Assembly: GCA_902787305.1 (NCBI GenBank)
Contig: CADAFS010000001.1
Span: 16,980-80,979, forward strand
DNA: 64,000 nucleotides
Direction of reading: 5' to 3'
Source: an uncultured Pseudomonadota bacterium
Lineage (GTDB): Bacteria; Pseudomonadota; Alphaproteobacteria; Rs-D84
In this document: piece after piece, positions 1,667-31,858 of the stretch
How the letters are laid out: every line of letters starts with the position of its first letter
How positions within the stretch are numbered: position 1 is the stretch's first letter
Translations under genes and position numbers: made by a program
The notes under the pieces: generated by a model
Told to the model about the DNA's origin: nothing
Databases searched by the model: none
Seen by the model: only the letters and a program-made list of their open reading frames with translations

Positions 1667-2080
1667 ATGAAAACATATATAACAAAAGATATAAATGAAA
1701 CACATAAATGGGCGGCGGATTTTGCGAAAATTCTGCGTGCGCCGGTGACGGTTGCATTGCATGGTGATTTGGGTGTTGGAAAATCGGAAATTGCGCGAAC
1801 AATTATACAAACACTTTGTGGGGCGGATACGGTTGTGCCAAGTCCGACGTTTACAATCGTGCAATCGTATGAAAACAAAACGGGTCGAATATCGCACTTT
1901 GATTTGTATCGTGTGTCGGACGCGTCCGAACTTGTTGAAATTGGTTTAATGCATGCGGTGCAAAATGATATTACACTAATTGAATGGCCGGATATTGCGC
2001 GTGATTTCTTGCCAAAAGATACGATTCATTTATATATAACCGAATTTGAAAATGGTCGAAAAATAGAAGTCGCTGATTAA
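1667..2080 (+). CDS. tsaE: tRNA threonylcarbamoyladenosine (t6A) biosynthesis ATPase TsaE
   Basis: 137 aa. P-loop GDLGVGKSEIAR, conserved HFDLYR and LIEWP motifs. It starts 4 nt after the uvrB stop. Confidence 0.85.
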   Translation: MKTYITKDINETHKWAADFAKILRAPVTVALHGDLGVGKSEIARTIIQTLCGADTVVPSPTFTIVQSYENKTGRISHFDLYRVSDASELVEIGLMHAVQNDITLIEWPDIARDFLPKDTIHLYITEFENGRKIEVAD

Positions 2081-3864
2081 ATACTTTTTGCGGATGGCAA
2101 TAGTGACATTACCGCAAGTGGAAAATCCGCAGCGCGCGCAAGGTATGAACCACTGACCAGCAAATCTGCGCCGGCACCCCAACAAAGTCGTGCCGTTTCG
2201 GGGTTTATTCCGCCATCAACCGATATTGTAAATCGCAGGCCATATTTTTTTCTTGTTCCCGCAAGTACAGATATTTTATTCAACACATTCATATTAAACT
2301 TTTGTCCCGCCGCGCCGGGTGCAACGCCCATCACCATAATTTCATCAATGTCACGCAAAATTGTTTTAAGTAATGATACCGAAGATTCCGGATTTAATGC
2401 GATACCAACGCGTTTGCCGGCGGCGCGGACAATTTGAACCGCGCGGCGCAGGCCGACCGTGTTTGTTGAAAGTATCACCGTGTCCGCGCCGGCGTTTATT
2501 GCGTCGGTTGCCCACGCCGATGGTGCGTCGGTCATTAAATGAACATGTAAATGGCCCGGCCATGCGGCGCGAATTTTGCGTAATTCTTCGATACCACCGG
2601 TTATTTTATCAACATAAAGTCCGTCCATAATATCGACATGTATTGCCGATATTCCGCCCGCGCGAAACATCGTATATGTTTCGGGGCGTGACATATCAAA
2701 GCAAAGTGTGCTTGGCATAATCGGAACGGCGGTTTGGCGTTTTTTCTTTGGTTTCTTGCGATGGAAAATGCCAAAAATTTTGTCGGTTGTTCTTTGCCAT
2801 TTTTTAAGGCGTGCAATGTATGCGCGACGATACGGTCGCGCCGATTCCCATATATATTTTGCAAGTGCGCGAACATTTGTGTCGGGTCCGGTTTGTGTTA
2901 TTTCGATGTCAAATGTTTGCGAAAGTAATTCAACAATTCCGTTTAACCTTGCGCCGCCGCCGGTTATGATTATTTCGGTTGGGGTGTATCTTTCGATGTA
3001 TCGCGCCGAATCATTTCTTATTTGTTCAACAATGTTATAGAAAAACGGAACAACAATTTCATTTACATCGGCGCATGAAAATGCGTATGCGGTGTCGGCC
3101 GGACTAAACCGTGCCATTTCATTTGAATAAAGGTTTGCAACATTACGTTTTATCCGTTCGGCTTCGGCAAATGGAATATCAAGTTTTGTTGATATTTCAT
3201 TTGTTAAATCGTTGCCACCGATAAAGTGGCCGTCATACCACACCGGGCCACGGTCCGTCCAAATAGATGCGGTTGTGTGTTCGGCACCAAAATCGATAAA
3301 CATTACATTTTTTTTCTTTTGGCGCAGCACGTTTGATGCCAAAAATTGCGGTGCATAAAATGCCGATGGTTGTATGTGCGATTGTCGCAGCAAACTTAAA
3401 ATTTTTTGCATACGTTCGTTTTCAAAAAACAGTGCAGAAATTTTTGATATAAGTTTTGTGTCGCTTTGTCCGATTGGTGTAAGCAGGTTGTGTGTGTTGC
3501 CCGTATCATATCGTAATGGTATTATATGCATGGGATAAAAACCGTCGGGTCTATCGATTTGTGAAATTTGTGATTTTACATCCGATGGGGTGATTTTATG
3601 TTCACCGTTCCAAACGGTTTCTTTGGTCGATATGTTAAAAAATGAATTGCCAAAATTTCCGGTTATGTATGCCGTGTCGAAATGCGTCCCCATTTGCCGT
3701 TCAAGTTCGTCCGCCACAGATTTTAGTGCAAAAACCGTATCAAAATCATCAACCGCATAGTATGCAGATTTATCAATCATTGCGTTTCTAACGCGGTGCG
3801 CAACGCCACGGACACCGCACGTTCCGATATCAAGACACAAAAAACAAGAATCAATCATATGCAT
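2077..3864 (-). CDS. ftsA/rpe: FtsA (actin-like cell-division ATPase) fused in-frame to ribulose-phosphate 3-epimerase (Rpe)
   Basis: Residues 1-382 look like FtsA (CLDIGTCGVRGVA, FIDFGAEHTT, IIITGGGARL, amphipathic tail KKWQRTTDKIFGIFHRK). Residues 383-595 look like a full-length Rpe (IHVDIMDG, HVHLM, SVDGGI). There is no stop codon between them. An internal ATG lies at 2718. Confidence 0.8.
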   Translation of the reverse strand: MHMIDSCFLCLDIGTCGVRGVAHRVRNAMIDKSAYYAVDDFDTVFALKSVADELERQMGTHFDTAYITGNFGNSFFNISTKETVWNGEHKITPSDVKSQISQIDRPDGFYPMHIIPLRYDTGNTHNLLTPIGQSDTKLISKISALFFENERMQKILSLLRQSHIQPSAFYAPQFLASNVLRQKKKNVMFIDFGAEHTTASIWTDRGPVWYDGHFIGGNDLTNEISTKLDIPFAEAERIKRNVANLYSNEMARFSPADTAYAFSCADVNEIVVPFFYNIVEQIRNDSARYIERYTPTEIIITGGGARLNGIVELLSQTFDIEITQTGPDTNVRALAKYIWESARPYRRAYIARLKKWQRTTDKIFGIFHRKKPKKKRQTAVPIMPSTLCFDMSRPETYTMFRAGGISAIHVDIMDGLYVDKITGGIEELRKIRAAWPGHLHVHLMTDAPSAWATDAINAGADTVILSTNTVGLRRAVQIVRAAGKRVGIALNPESSVSLLKTILRDIDEIMVMGVAPGAAGQKFNMNVLNKISVLAGTRKKYGLRFTISVDGGINPETARLCWGAGADLLVSGSYLARAADFPLAVMSLLPSAKSI

Positions 3865-27669: not shown

Positions 27670-30600
27670 TTAAGCCTTTTGTATAGAGATTCCAAAGTTA
27701 TACCCTTCGATTTCCGTAAAGTGTTCGGCCGAACCCGGCGACATTTCACGGACAAGCGCGTTCGACATTATCATCTTTTTATGCTGTTCCAACGCACCGG
27801 ACAACGCCAAATCCGCCGTATAGGTAAGATTTATTCGGTCGGACACATCCAAACCCAACGCTTTGCGCGTGTCTTGGATAAAGCGCAACGCGTCGTTCGC
27901 CAAACCTTCGGCAATCAATTCGGAATTTAATTCAGCGTCCAAAATGACAACCGCGGTATTATCCGGCAACGGCATACCCGTCACACCATCGCGGATATTC
28001 AGACGGTTTTCGAATTCATCCGCGTTCAGTGTATAATCGCCGACAACCAACTTATCGCCCGACAATTCGTAGTCACCCCGTTTCACGGCCGGTGCAATTT
28101 CGCGCAACGCACCGCCCAAACGCGCACCGATTTTCGGCGTGATCAAATATATGAAACTGTCCGCGACCTTTGCCGTGTTATCGACCCATTCAACAGATTT
28201 TACATTTAATTCATCGCGAATGATATTCGTATATTCGGTCATAGGTGTGCCGCCCGCAACCGTCAATTTGTTCAGTGGTAAACGATTACGCAATTTGTAT
28301 TGTTCACGCAATTGCTTTCCAACAGACACGATTTCTTGGACACGGCGCATATCGGCGACGATTTTTTCGTCCCCCGCGTTTGCCACCGGCCAATCGGTCA
28401 AATGCACCGATTCCGCACCAGTTAAATTTTTATAGATGTATTCGGATACGAACGGCGCAAGCGGTGCCAAACAGCGGCATACGGTACAAAGCACCGTATA
28501 GAGCGTATTGAACGCGGTTGTGTCTTCATCCCAAAAACGCGTGCGCGAACGACGGATATACCAATTGTTTAGGATGTCCAAGAATCGCACAAATTCTTTG
28601 ACCGCCGTGTCCGGTTTATATTCGTTTAGTGCATTGCCAACCGTATCAACCAAAACGCCTGTTTCCGACAAAATATATTTATCCAAAACATTTCGTGCAT
28701 TTGTCCCCGATACATCGTGTGCCGTCATGTTTCCGGCATTCGCATATAATGTAAAGAAATGATATGCGTTCCAAAGCGGGGTTAAAATCGTCTTTATCGG
28801 TTCGGCAAAAACCTTGCCTTCTTTATCAACGGGAACAGGTTCGGCCTTCATAAAATTACTGCCCAAGATATAAAGTCTAACCGCATCCGCACCATATGCT
28901 TCGAATTGTTCCGATGGGTCAACAAAGTTATGAAGCGATTTTGAAAACTTTCTTTTGTTTTCATCAACAACCATACCATTTGCCGAAACAACACGGAAAG
29001 CCGGTTTATCAAACAGCGCGACCGCTATTACCATTAGAGAATAAAACCAACCACGTGTTTGGTCTTGACCTTCGATGATATAATCCGCCGGGAAAGTTTT
29101 TTCAAATGTATCTTTGTTTTCAAACGGATAGTGCAGGGCCGCAAACGGCATTGAACCCGATTCAAACCAGCAATCCAAAACATCGGGTATGCGTTTCCAA
29201 CCGTCACGCGTTAGTGCATCCAATGTCGGACGATGCAAATCGTCAATCTTTACACCAAAGAATTCTTCGAGTTCCGCAATTGAACCAAAGATTTTATATT
29301 CACCGTCGCGTTCCCAGATTGGTAATGGCACCCCCCAGAAACGGTTGCGCGAAATTCCCCACGGACGCGCGTTTTCAATCCAGGACAAAAATCTATTGCC
29401 CGCCGATGTCCATGTTGTGTCGTTTTTGGTTATTTCAACAAGGCGCTCGCGAATTTTCGGAACATCGATATACCATGCGTCCGTCGCGCGATAGATAAGT
29501 TTTTCCTTGCTGCGTGGGCCGAACGGATAACTGTGCCGGTGCTGATCTTTTTTAACCAAGATTCCATTTGCCCGCAACCAATCAATAATCTTTGGATTGG
29601 CAACAAATATGTTTTCGCCCGCCCATTCGGTGACCGTGTTATCAAAGTTGCCGTAATCGTCAACATTTAATATAACCGGGAATTGCGGGTCAATAGCCTT
29701 GGCCACGATATAGTCGTCTTCACCATACGCCGGCGCGATATGAACGATACCGGTTCCGTCACTGTCCGACACGTAATCGCCGGAAATCACCGTATACAGG
29801 CCGTGCCCATCCTTTGCCAAATCGGTATAATATGGGAAAATCGGTTTATAATGTAATCCAACAAGGTCGGCCCCCATAACCGTCCCCAGGTTTTCGGAGT
29901 TTGCAAAAATCTTGTCATATGCCGAAAGTCGCGATTCCGCCAGAACATAAACATGGCCGTCATCATGACGCATACGAACATATTTCATATTGTTATTCAC
30001 CGCCAATGCCGAATTTGCCGGCAACGTCCATGGTGTTGTTGTCCATGCAATCGCACGGTCGCCATTTGACAGTTCAAACCAAACCGTCACGGTATCGTCA
30101 ACGATATCTTGGTATTCGCTTGACGCTTCGGAATTAGAAAGCACCGTTCCCAATTTCCAATCAAACGGGTTCACTTTGAAATCTTTATAGAGCAACCCAC
30201 GTTCATACATTTGTTTTAATGCCCAAATCACAGATTCCATATAGTTTTTATCCATTGTGCGATAACCATATTCATCGCCACCATCAACCCAACGACCAAC
30301 GCGTTCAATGAAACGCAACCATTCGTTGGTATATGTTGTCACATCGGAACGGCATAAATCACAGAAATGCGCCATACCGTCAGAACCAACAATATCCTTG
30401 GCGGTGCGGCCTTGTTTTTTTTCAACAGATGCCTCCGCCGGCAGGCCATGACAATCCCACCCAAGAACCCGGTCAACATACCGACCGTGCATAGTTTGAA
30501 AGCGTGCAACCATATCTTTGACCGCCGACACCCCAAGGTGCCCCCAATGTGGCAATCCATTTCCAAACGGTGGCCCATCGTAAAATGTGAATGGATGCCC

Positions 30601-30714
30601 AAGTTTCGTTTTGTTCAAACTTTTGTGGAAAGTATCGTCCCCGCGCCAAAACTCTATTATTTCATGTTCCAGTTTCGGAAAATCGGCCTTTGGTTCGGTC
30701 TTTGGATATGCCAT
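27670..30714 (-). CDS. ileS: Isoleucine--tRNA ligase (long, type-2-like form)
   Basis: 1014 aa. HIGH-type motif PHWGHLG, KMSKS-type KFSKSLHN, and a CP1 editing domain. Confidence 0.95.
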   Translation of the reverse strand: MAYPKTEPKADFPKLEHEIIEFWRGDDTFHKSLNKTKLGHPFTFYDGPPFGNGLPHWGHLGVSAVKDMVARFQTMHGRYVDRVLGWDCHGLPAEASVEKKQGRTAKDIVGSDGMAHFCDLCRSDVTTYTNEWLRFIERVGRWVDGGDEYGYRTMDKNYMESVIWALKQMYERGLLYKDFKVNPFDWKLGTVLSNSEASSEYQDIVDDTVTVWFELSNGDRAIAWTTTPWTLPANSALAVNNNMKYVRMRHDDGHVYVLAESRLSAYDKIFANSENLGTVMGADLVGLHYKPIFPYYTDLAKDGHGLYTVISGDYVSDSDGTGIVHIAPAYGEDDYIVAKAIDPQFPVILNVDDYGNFDNTVTEWAGENIFVANPKIIDWLRANGILVKKDQHRHSYPFGPRSKEKLIYRATDAWYIDVPKIRERLVEITKNDTTWTSAGNRFLSWIENARPWGISRNRFWGVPLPIWERDGEYKIFGSIAELEEFFGVKIDDLHRPTLDALTRDGWKRIPDVLDCWFESGSMPFAALHYPFENKDTFEKTFPADYIIEGQDQTRGWFYSLMVIAVALFDKPAFRVVSANGMVVDENKRKFSKSLHNFVDPSEQFEAYGADAVRLYILGSNFMKAEPVPVDKEGKVFAEPIKTILTPLWNAYHFFTLYANAGNMTAHDVSGTNARNVLDKYILSETGVLVDTVGNALNEYKPDTAVKEFVRFLDILNNWYIRRSRTRFWDEDTTAFNTLYTVLCTVCRCLAPLAPFVSEYIYKNLTGAESVHLTDWPVANAGDEKIVADMRRVQEIVSVGKQLREQYKLRNRLPLNKLTVAGGTPMTEYTNIIRDELNVKSVEWVDNTAKVADSFIYLITPKIGARLGGALREIAPAVKRGDYELSGDKLVVGDYTLNADEFENRLNIRDGVTGMPLPDNTAVVILDAELNSELIAEGLANDALRFIQDTRKALGLDVSDRINLTYTADLALSGALEQHKKMIMSNALVREMSPGSAEHFTEIEGYNFGISIQKA

Positions 30715-30742
30715 TTTTTACTCCATTATTTGCAATTATCAT

Positions 30743-30768
30743 AAAAAAACGGGCGCATCTGCGCCCGG
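30743..30768 (-). terminator. Intrinsic terminator inside the ileS 5' leader (candidate attenuator)
   Basis: On the minus strand: CGGGCGC-AGAT-GCGCCCG followed by TTTTTTT, ending 29 nt upstream of the ileS ATG. No upstream minus-strand gene is available for it to terminate. Confidence 0.65.
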
Positions 30769-30793
30769 GCCATCGCCAAAGCGCAAGGCCAGA

Positions 30794-30829
30794 TTATCTT
30801 ATAATAATGATTGTTTTTTTGTTCATCAT
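30794..30829 (-). CDS. Candidate Ile-rich leader peptide MMNKKTIIIIR
   Basis: ATG ATG AAC AAA AAA ACA ATC ATT ATT ATA AGA TAA. Four consecutive Ile codons lie 25 nt upstream of the terminator stem. A TATAAT sits at 30842-30847 (minus strand). Confidence 0.5.
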   Translation of the reverse strand: MMNKKTIIIIR

Positions 30830-30921
30830 GCGCAGTAGTCTATTATACAAAATACAATATTTCAAGTATTTTTTGACAAACCGTATATTTAATATAAAAT
30901 CAACAAAAAAAGGATTTAAGC

Positions 30922-31551
30922 ATGAAAGACGAAAATTTTGAAAATCTTGCGTATTTTATGGGTCGGTTGTTAAAGCCGTTTGTTGCGATTTGGGCGCCCG
31001 TCTATGCACTACAAAAAGTACGATGCGAAATTGCCGACCCACAAAAAATAGACGAACCACTTGAACTTGGCAAAAGCATAAGAAAACATACCAATGCTTT
31101 TATGAAAAACAAAGTGCATGCGTTGCCTGATTATTTTTTTAATCGGGCCTGGACATACAACGAATGGCGCAAACAAAAATATGACAATTCGTATACCGTG
31201 CCTATTAATGTGCAACCTGAAATTGATGAAAAACAAATTGGCGACATTGTTGCAAAGTTAGAGTTTGCTCCTGTGCTTCATGTTTCTTATTTTGAAAAAA
31301 CAGAACATCAACCACGGGTGCCGTCATTGTGTAATTTTGGGGACTATGTTATTCAATTTTCATCGGCCGGAACCGAATGGTGTGGTGGTATGCGCGGGAA
31401 TGGATATATCTCAAAAAAAATGCCGGACAGAACACGGGAACCAATTTGCACAATTTCACCAGACCTTTCTGATTATTTGGCGGAAGTTGCACATGTACAG
31501 TATGAATTGATGAAAACGAAAGATAGGTTATCAATGTTTTGTGCGCGATAA
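30922..31551 (+). CDS. Hypothetical protein (209 aa)
   Basis: RBS AAAGGA. No recognised motif. Confidence 0.55.
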   Translation: MKDENFENLAYFMGRLLKPFVAIWAPVYALQKVRCEIADPQKIDEPLELGKSIRKHTNAFMKNKVHALPDYFFNRAWTYNEWRKQKYDNSYTVPINVQPEIDEKQIGDIVAKLEFAPVLHVSYFEKTEHQPRVPSLCNFGDYVIQFSSAGTEWCGGMRGNGYISKKMPDRTREPICTISPDLSDYLAEVAHVQYELMKTKDRLSMFCAR

Positions 31552-31782: not shown

Positions 31783-31858
31783 TGGTGCCGGTGATAAGAC
31801 TCGAACTTACGACCCCCTCATTACGAATGAGATGCTCTACCAACTGAGCTACACCGGC
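31783..31858 (-). tRNA. tRNA-Thr (anticodon CGU), CCA encoded
   Basis: GCCGGTG-TA-GCTC-AGTTGGTA-GAGC-A-TCTCA-TTCGTAA-TGAGG-GGGTC-GTAAG-TTCGAGT-CTTAT-CACCGGC-A-CCA (hand fold). Confidence 0.9.

Follow-up and report, generated by a model that had tools for sequence, protein, structure and literature searches.

The question raised by the ileS locus studied here is what a very short open reading frame (ORF) with a run of isoleucine (Ile) codons, followed by an intrinsic terminator, does upstream of an isoleucyl-tRNA synthetase (IleRS) gene. The locus lies on the minus strand of a 64,000-nucleotide (nt) stretch, hereafter the window, of contig CADAFS010000001.1 (assembly GCA_902787305.1; Alphaproteobacteria, Rs-D84). 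In the initial annotation of this DNA, the leader was proposed as an Ile-codon ribosome-mediated attenuator of ileS, and conservation in relatives was set beforehand as the test. The mini-ORF and the hairpin were kept in 18/18 members of the family described below, and together with an antiterminator, also found in 18/18, they support the proposal. The element is very probably a ribosome-mediated leader-peptide attenuator which adjusts ileS transcription to the availability of charged tRNA-Ile.

The minus-strand mini-ORF, the GC terminator, the T7 tract, and the Shine-Dalgarno (SD) sequence and ATG of ileS were all located where they had been annotated. Two distances were corrected by one nucleotide. 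The gap between the mini-ORF stop and the terminator stem, given as 25 nt, was measured as 26 nt, and the distance from terminator to ileS, given as 29 nt, was 28 nt when counted from the T-tract to the ATG.

Relatives were collected by two independent routes. In route A, 80 loci of IleRS relatives were taken from contigs at one genome per species, and a mini-ORF with an Ile run was found within 500 nt upstream of ileS in 9 of the 80. The carriers were L001 to L006, L008, and L048, all from the clade of the window and with IleRS identities of 72-87%, and L010, with 44%. The mini-ORF search found none in the other 71 loci, AT-rich Rickettsiales included; L007 was added later by a covariance model. 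In route B, metagenome contigs were scanned for the RNA module only, i.e., the pattern GCGCTTNNGCN{5,7}CNNGGGCGCN{3,6}GCGCC, with no ORF required. This gave 120 loci, 113 of which were chance matches in GC-rich DNA with neither T-tract nor ORF. The seven matches with a T-rich tail (contig GC 0.35-0.52) all had an ORF of the form M-x(3-5)-I(3-5)-(x)-TAA directly upstream and ileS directly downstream (58-89% identity). The covariance model, built from 17 leaders, regained all 17 and added L007. The full architecture was thereby present in 18/18 members, i.e., the window and 17 others. By both routes and by the covariance model, the element was found only before ileS or before an operon of a GNAT gene and ileS, and the link to ileS held over an IleRS identity range of 44-89%.

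As expected of an attenuator, a short ORF with cognate codons was found upstream of the gene in every member, with a length of 9-11 residues and TAA as stop in 18/18. The Ile run counts three to five consecutive codons (18/18); its 3' boundary is fixed, and gains or losses are always on the 5' side. Ile is encoded by 70 of the 72 aligned sensor codons (ATT 37, ATA 23, ATC 10). At codon positions 1 and 2, only two sequences deviate, each in its first sensor codon (AAA or ACA), and the third base varies among A, T, and C at all four codons and is never G. Between the run and the stop stands AAA, AGA, GAA, or GGA (in one sequence, TAA), and this geometry of an Ile run, one codon, and then TAA is conserved. 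The N-terminal codons are only 60% identical, and the frame and the length are nonetheless kept. In most relatives, the start codon corresponds in the alignment to the second ATG of the window mini-ORF (30826). Such a substitution pattern is the one expected from selection on decoding, not on the RNA sequence. The mini-ORF may be translated in its host, as hinted indirectly by the synonymous-only pattern, by the kept frame, length, and stop, and by a promoter geometry which fits leaderless mRNA.

The Ile codons could instead be incidental AU-rich filler in a general sensor of translation coupling. The genome is AT-rich (GC ~0.43), ATH codons are cheap in it, and the ORF is tiny and probably leaderless. 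However, this explanation is quite unlikely, because the sensor codons change synonymously only and the Ile block does not drift while the N-terminal codons do. Four ATH codons in a row are also rare, with five occurrences in 128 kb (the window, both strands), and a general sensor would not be expected before ileS or the GNAT-ileS operon only.

An intrinsic terminator was found between the leader ORF and ileS in all members. It has 5-7 G-C pairs and a U-tract, its basal pair is CG, UA, GC, or GU, and its predicted stability is -7.1 to -15.2 kcal/mol. The upstream gene (30922-31551, plus strand) is divergent and has its own promoter (TTGACA-16-TAAAAT), so the terminator can only stop transcripts from the leader promoter. 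Of thirteen terminator-like sites in the window, the one in the leader alone has upstream of it a short ORF that contains three or more identical residues in a row.

Two alternative pairings were predicted before the terminator. In the antiterminator, region 2 (GCGCUUYNGC) pairs with region 3 (GGGCGC and the four bases before it), and 7 nt of the terminator 5' arm are taken up. It forms 9-10 of 10 pairs in 17/17 sequences; in the window, GCGCUUUGGC and GCCCGGGCGC form 9 pairs of 10 positions, with one U-C mismatch. A short TGCGC/GCGCA pairing, which the initial annotation had offered as a hint while defining no convincing antiterminator, proved to be the base of this helix. The other pairing is the P1 hairpin, a predicted anti-antiterminator, with -12.2 kcal/mol in the window and -9.4 to -15.3 kcal/mol in the 17/17 sequences tested that carry it. 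The P1 5' strand starts 3 nt past the stop in the window and 0-3 nt past it across members (in L087, past the normal stop position). Its 3' strand consists of the antiterminator loop and the first bases of region 3, and P1 and the antiterminator are mutually exclusive. In full-length folds, P1 and the terminator coexist (-21 to -27 kcal/mol). A transcript cut off before region 4, with region 3 at its end, can form either P1 or the antiterminator, at similar energies.

The antiterminator cells were paired in 95.3% of cases against 32-56% with slid partners (17 sequences), and the P1 cells in 87.5% against 26-55% in slid controls. On the model-fitted alignment, P1 and the terminator together had 92.8% of cells paired. 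The mean pairwise identity was 0.92, 0.90, and 0.88 for arms 2, 3, and 4, and 0.60, 0.43, and 0.51 for the antiterminator loop, the terminator loop, and the P1 5' strand. Near-invariant helices are expected, since region 3 must pair with two partners. Sequestration of the terminator 5' arm by the antiterminator is thus indicated by consistent pairing and conservation, and the helices in general are predicted from conservation and thermodynamics, not from covariation. The sequence elements, their conservation, the codon signature, and the alternative pairings can be read directly from the aligned leaders.

The same profile bears on a leader that would bind a protein or a tRNA, i.e., a T-box or an autoregulation by IleRS in the style of ThrRS, with the mini-ORF irrelevant. 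T-box regulation is known for other ileS genes in Firmicutes and Actinobacteria (PMC1262725). For the present leader it is hardly credible. The hairpin loops, at 43-60% identity, are the least conserved parts, and no conserved anticodon-like or specifier element was seen. Neither a Stem I specifier loop nor a T-box sequence was found in the leader, and the structured RNA of ~50 nt is too small for a T-box. The only window features recognised by Rfam were two tRNAs; in the leader, neither a T-box nor any other family matched credibly, whether at the gathering threshold or at E <= 10.

Table 1. Features of the ileS leader region and its surroundings in the window.
Feature	Position	Strand	Remarks
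-35 box TTGAAA	30860..30865	-	TTGAAA-17-TAGACT promoter prediction
-10 box TAGACT	30837..30842	-	17-nt spacer from -35; ends 7 nt before the mini-ORF ATG
Leader mini-ORF	30794..30829	-	ATGATG AAC AAA AAA ACA ATC ATT ATT ATA AGA TAA = MMNKKTIIIIR*
Ile sensor codons	30800..30811	-	ATC ATT ATT ATA, four in a row
Structured segment TCTGGCCTTGCGCTTTGGCGATGGCC	30793-30767	-	last base shared with the terminator stem
P1 hairpin	30768..30790	-	GGCCUUGC-GCUUUG-GCGA-U-GGCC; predicted anti-antiterminator, possibly also pause hairpin
Region 2 (antiterminator 5' arm)	30775..30784	-	GCGCUUUGGC
Region 3 (antiterminator 3' arm)	30761..30770	-	GCCCGGGCGC; last 7 nt = terminator 5' arm
Intrinsic terminator	30750..30767	-	CGGGCGC-AGAU-GCGCCCG; 7 G-C pairs, -14.4 kcal/mol
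U-tract	30743..30749	-	T7
SD sequence of ileS	30721..30724	-	GGAG
ileS	27670..30714	-	candidate regulated gene, 1014 amino acids (aa); ATG at 30714
tRNA-Thr(CGU)	31783..31858	-	syntenic neighbour upstream of the leader in most relatives

A further helix was considered and rejected. In an RNAfold structure, the last Ile codons close on the U-tract and the bases downstream of it. The native duplex had a mean of -4.2 kcal/mol, with chimeras at -2.9 and shuffles at -2.0, a weak effect. The value was near zero in several members, and the helix was not adopted in the mechanism. Positions 30794-30808, i.e., the last Ile codons, the following codon, and the stop, are complementary to 30734-30749 (minus strand), i.e., the U-tract and TATGAT/TATAAT-like bases, which also look like a -10 box. 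This duplex reaches -7 to -8 kcal/mol in the window, L001, L003, and L004, with apparent compensatory changes in L155, L180, and L005.

A mechanism can be proposed from these elements, in which the folding order and the direction of the response are inferred. Transcription would start at the AUG of the 11-codon ORF or a few nt from it, as judged from promoter spacing, and a ribosome would translate the mini-ORF close behind RNA polymerase. With plentiful Ile-tRNA, the ribosome would reach the UAA and then be released or rest there, its front just overlapping the start of region 2. With the antiterminator hindered, or P1 refolded, P1 and the terminator would both form, and transcription would end at the U-tract, 28 nt before ileS. 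With scarce Ile-tRNA, the ribosome would pause at the last Ile codons and shield the P1 5' strand with its leading edge. Region 2 would stay free to pair with the emerging region 3, the terminator 5' arm would be sequestered, and the polymerase would read through into ileS. With no ribosome or an early-stalled one, P1 and the terminator would form, and transcription would terminate.

Ribosome-masked folds of nascent RNA, with the 5' part covered and the leading edge set at +12 or +15, were used to examine this geometry. Region 2 starts 9-11 nt past the TAA in all members except L087. With the A site on the last Ile codon (+12) or on the last two (+15), the antiterminator probability rose from 0.2-0.7 to ~1.0; the jump was seen where P1 competes well, i.e., in L002, L003, L006, and L010. 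With the A site on the stop, the overlap of the edge with the GCGC base of the antiterminator was 0-1 nt at +12 and 1-4 nt at +15. P1 is complete ~7 nt of transcription before the antiterminator can form, and by this earlier completion it would be the kinetic default. Folding with and without a mask had been proposed in the initial annotation as a check. The masked half agreed with the attenuator, with an antiterminator probability near 1, but the antiterminator often won in the unmasked folds too.

Several observations weigh against this mechanism or against its parts. At equilibrium, the antiterminator beats P1 in most sequences even with no ribosome, and for this reason the "off" default depends on the kinetic argument. 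A ribosome stalled on Ile codons 1-2 leaves P1 free, and a strict +12 footprint at the stop codon barely touches region 2; geometry alone therefore cannot fix the sign of the response. Seven of the 10 antiterminator pairs never vary, and a single pair is compensatory (GC 6, GU 6, AU 2); the covariation score of 0.075 against 0.056 was equalled in 17/500 shuffles. The covariation of P1 was not above shuffles, and the score of P1 together with the terminator was 0.163 against 0.127, equalled in 7/500 shuffles. The swap test of P1 was modest, with 35% of chimeras as stable as the native hairpin (-12.5 native against -11.7 kcal/mol). It was convincing only in divergent sequences, where chimeras equalling the native were 0/16 for the window, 0/16 for L006, and 2/15 for L003. 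The leaders of L004, L005, L048, and L139 stand behind a tRNA and have no promoter to themselves, and the promoter geometry does not account for the start of translation there. The RNA contigs described below are sparse, of low depth, and partly from relatives, and one of them extends upstream of the promoter.

The points on geometry are also those that would fit an inverted logic, in which a ribosome at the stop or at the codon before it masks only the P1 5' strand and allows read-through, an early stall on Ile codons 1-2 gives termination, and ileS rises when Ile-tRNA is plentiful. A +12 ribosome at the stop codon masks the entire stretch after the stop yet reaches only 0-1 nt into region 2, and P1 can still form when the stall is at the first Ile codons. 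Such a response, however, would not be homeostatic. To our knowledge, all characterised leaders of aminoacyl-tRNA synthetase genes, i.e., pheST attenuation and T-boxes, raise expression at low charging. A run with a fixed 3' and a variable 5' boundary (3-5 codons) fits the last Ile codons as the sensing positions, and a ribosome at the stop with its edge at +15 overlaps the strongest part of the antiterminator by 1-4 nt. The inverted logic is therefore given very little probability, and the attenuator that raises ileS at low charging is preferred.

The leader promoter had first been annotated as a TATAAT box. That box exists (30847-30842), 12 nt before the ATG, but its spacer to the -35 box is only 12 nt, and TTGAAA-17-TAGACT (30865-30837), which overlaps it by 1 nt, is the better promoter. 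All 14 leaders that have a promoter to themselves share this arrangement. Their -35 and -10 hexamers are 17 nt apart, and 6-10 nt (7 nt in 11 leaders) separate the -10 hexamer from the ATG; the predicted start usually has a pyrimidine at -1 and the A at +1. The -35 box of relatives varies, with the same spacing, to TGGAAA, TTGATT, TTGCAA, or TTGCTT. In the window, transcription is thus predicted to start at the A of the mini-ORF ATG or 1 nt before it. No SD sequence was found before the mini-ORF in any member examined, whereas GGAG or similar stands before ileS in most relatives. The missing SD had already been pointed out in the initial annotation, and with the -10 box so close to the ATG it would be accounted for by a leaderless or near-leaderless mRNA. 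The leader mRNA is probably leaderless. In Alphaproteobacteria, this is a known solution, as the mRNA of the Sinorhizobium meliloti trp attenuator is documented as leaderless and begins at the trpL AUG (PMC10117765).

Four members differ in their 5' region. In L004, L005, and L048 the ORF begins 10-11 nt past the CCA end of tRNA-Thr(CGU), and in L139 ~60 nt past it. Neither a promoter nor a terminator was found between the tRNA and the ORF in these four loci. This arrangement implies that the leader is co-transcribed with tRNA-Thr and that its 5' end may be made by tRNA processing.

Window DNA was present in bovine and goat gut metagenomes. The RNA runs contained only 5-15% of the sampled words and gave contigs of 149-382 nt with a depth of 2-7, partly from relatives. 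A 151-nt RNA contig (X26, 30679-30829) ends exactly at the predicted start, 30829, as a single low-depth observation. Another (X27) runs past the promoter to 30873, for which DNA carry-over is possible.

Alternatively, the leader could be an independent gene for a small RNA or a micro-peptide that has its own terminator, with ileS transcribed mainly from a weak promoter at a TAnnnT box past the T-tract. Such a box follows the T-tract in 11/18 members, and the terminated trp leader RNA and peptide of S. meliloti are reported to act in trans (PMC6614838, PMC7298713). On the other side, the position of a -35 for the TAnnnT box is the GC-rich terminator stem, no -35 was found, and the box has no TG extension. 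An antiterminator which sequesters the terminator arm would be kept to no purpose, and the linkage to ileS is strict over the whole IleRS identity range of 44-89%. An independent gene is accordingly very improbable, and attenuation of ileS remains the preferred explanation.

The cassette of leader and attenuator is almost unchanged before IleRS alleles only 44-64% identical and before the GNAT-ileS operon. In L010 (2890-6051; a metagenome-assembled genome (MAG) labelled Rickettsiales), the promoter, leader, and attenuator are near-identical, and the IleRS is only 44% identical; it resembles those of L009 and L011, both of which have no leader. This suggests that the ileS allele was replaced behind a kept leader, or that the leader was transferred. 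In L007 (2338-6084), the leader MVTRNTIIIG* is followed by a gene for a 178-aa GNAT acetyltransferase with a strong AGGAGG SD and then by ileS, whose product is 62% identical. Since the GNAT gene lies between the leader with its terminator and ileS, the attenuator would control a GNAT-ileS operon. Acetyltransferases which detoxify aminoacyl-adenylate mimics exist, and a link of the L007 GNAT to them is speculation.

Further variants were seen among the members. The leader-bearing IleRS of L087 (3412-6423, minus-strand copy), L161, and L007 (2992-6084) are 58-64% identical, and just before the HIGH signature they have FYDGPPTPSSKPHV or FFDGPATPSSIPHIGH in place of FYDGPPFxNGLPHxGH. In L161, an insertion lies ~20-95 nt past the terminator, before the ileS start, and contains a long inverted repeat of GAGGTTTGAAGTTTGAAG-type units.

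The ileS product of the window is a class-I synthetase with an anticodon-binding domain and a C-terminal DUF5915, i.e., the long, type-2-like form. Neither other aminoacyl-tRNA synthetase genes nor amino-acid biosynthesis genes were found among the 20 largest ORFs of the window. The gene on the other strand upstream of the leader, noted in the initial annotation, is a real gene, with ~40% identity kept in L001 and L180. It is a 209-aa orphan with no Pfam match and fast evolution, and the IleRS of the loci with these positional counterparts are 87-89% identical. In the sub-clade of the window, this gene was inserted between tRNA-Thr and the leader. Elsewhere in the window (2077-3864, minus strand), a 595-aa ORF comprises an FtsA/PilM-like ATPase region (residues ~182-327) and a ribulose-phosphate 3-epimerase domain that is complete (residues 383-575). 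Either this is an odd fusion, or the ORF caller has merged two genes.

The attenuator is mechanistically conventional and its target gene is unusual; it is not a new mechanism. In proteobacteria, aminoacyl-tRNA synthetase genes outside pheST are usually regarded as having no amino-acid-specific attenuation, and regulation of ileS in Gram-positive bacteria is the textbook T-box. The Escherichia coli pheST attenuator (pheM), cited as the precedent for attenuation of such genes (PMC1262725), likewise places a short ORF containing consecutive cognate codons before alternative antiterminator and terminator hairpins in a proteobacterial synthetase operon. It senses Phe for pheST, whereas the present leader would read Ile for ileS with a shorter ORF (10-11 codons) which is apparently leaderless. 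In pheST, the 5' strand of the anti-antiterminator overlaps the sensor codons, while here it lies wholly past the stop codon. The two show no sequence similarity, and the Rfam leader families have no match here. Leader-peptide attenuation was also predicted for Streptomyces trpS and leuS (PMC1262725) and for Bacillus hisS paralogues (PMC2965389).

The T-boxes of ileS, in Firmicutes and, in translational form, in Actinobacteria, serve the same goal, i.e., more ileS at low charging of tRNA-Ile, and switch by terminator and antiterminator or by sequestor and anti-sequestor (PMC1262725). T-box RNA senses uncharged tRNA by direct binding; in the present leader, sensing would depend on a ribosome that reads Ile codons. 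In S. meliloti, the leaderless alphaproteobacterial attenuator (trpL/rnTrpL/peTrpL) is matched by the 7-nt spacing from -10 box to ATG found here (PMC10117765). It senses Trp and controls trpE(G), trans roles of its RNA and peptide were shown, and its start was mapped experimentally, whereas here the start comes from spacing.

Ile codons are also read in the leaders of ilvGMEDA (ilvL) and ilvBN (ivbL), where Ile together with Val/Leu codons sense branched-chain aminoacyl-tRNA by attenuation. Each of those leaders responds to several amino acids, is longer, depends on an SD, and controls a biosynthetic operon, in contrast to the pure Ile sensor and the synthetase target found here. For ileS itself, the initial annotation had known of no established leader attenuation. 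No description of an ileS attenuator was found in the literature searched, but an ileS leader peptide had been mentioned, and it was the only one found. This is the "ileS leader CDS" of Caulobacter crescentus, CCNA_03934, a small translated alphaproteobacterial coding sequence upstream of ileS, seen by ribosome profiling (PMC4117421). In that report, it serves only as a negative control, and no analysis of its sequence, structure, or regulation was found there; accordingly, the likeness to the present leader is by description only.

The lineage gives a setting for such a sensor. The L048 contig belongs to MAG KH370_54, which is assigned to Candidatus Enterousia of the order Rs-D84 (PMC12306168). 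Genomes of Ca. Enterousia are described as under ~1 Mbp and lacking amino-acid biosynthesis (PMC12306168), and the lineage probably cannot make its own isoleucine. For an auxotroph with no ilv operon to regulate, the level of IleRS is a plausible way to defend the charging of tRNA-Ile. The probable leaderless start, the position of P1 past the stop codon, the linkage to a tRNA gene, and the persistence before divergent ileS alleles are modestly unusual. It is possible, although doubtful as a whole, that all of these belong to one stand-alone sensor of external Ile in auxotrophic gut symbionts. In it, the mRNA would be leaderless or released from tRNA-Thr, the last two Ile codons would sense, and the anti-antiterminator past the stop would be read by the ribosome edge. 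The cassette would outlive its cargo, and an RNA of ~87 nt might act in trans.

The existence of this leader has a meaning for gene regulation in small genomes. A minimal attenuator of ~120 nt would do the job of a T-box in a lineage with genomes under ~1 Mbp, which suggests that what such symbionts can still adjust to keep charging balanced is the amount of synthetase. As a compact, probably leaderless, and strongly conserved element, it could be a clean model or a synthetic-biology part for sensing of ribosome position, and the leader could mark ileS operons when Rs-D84 genomes are annotated.

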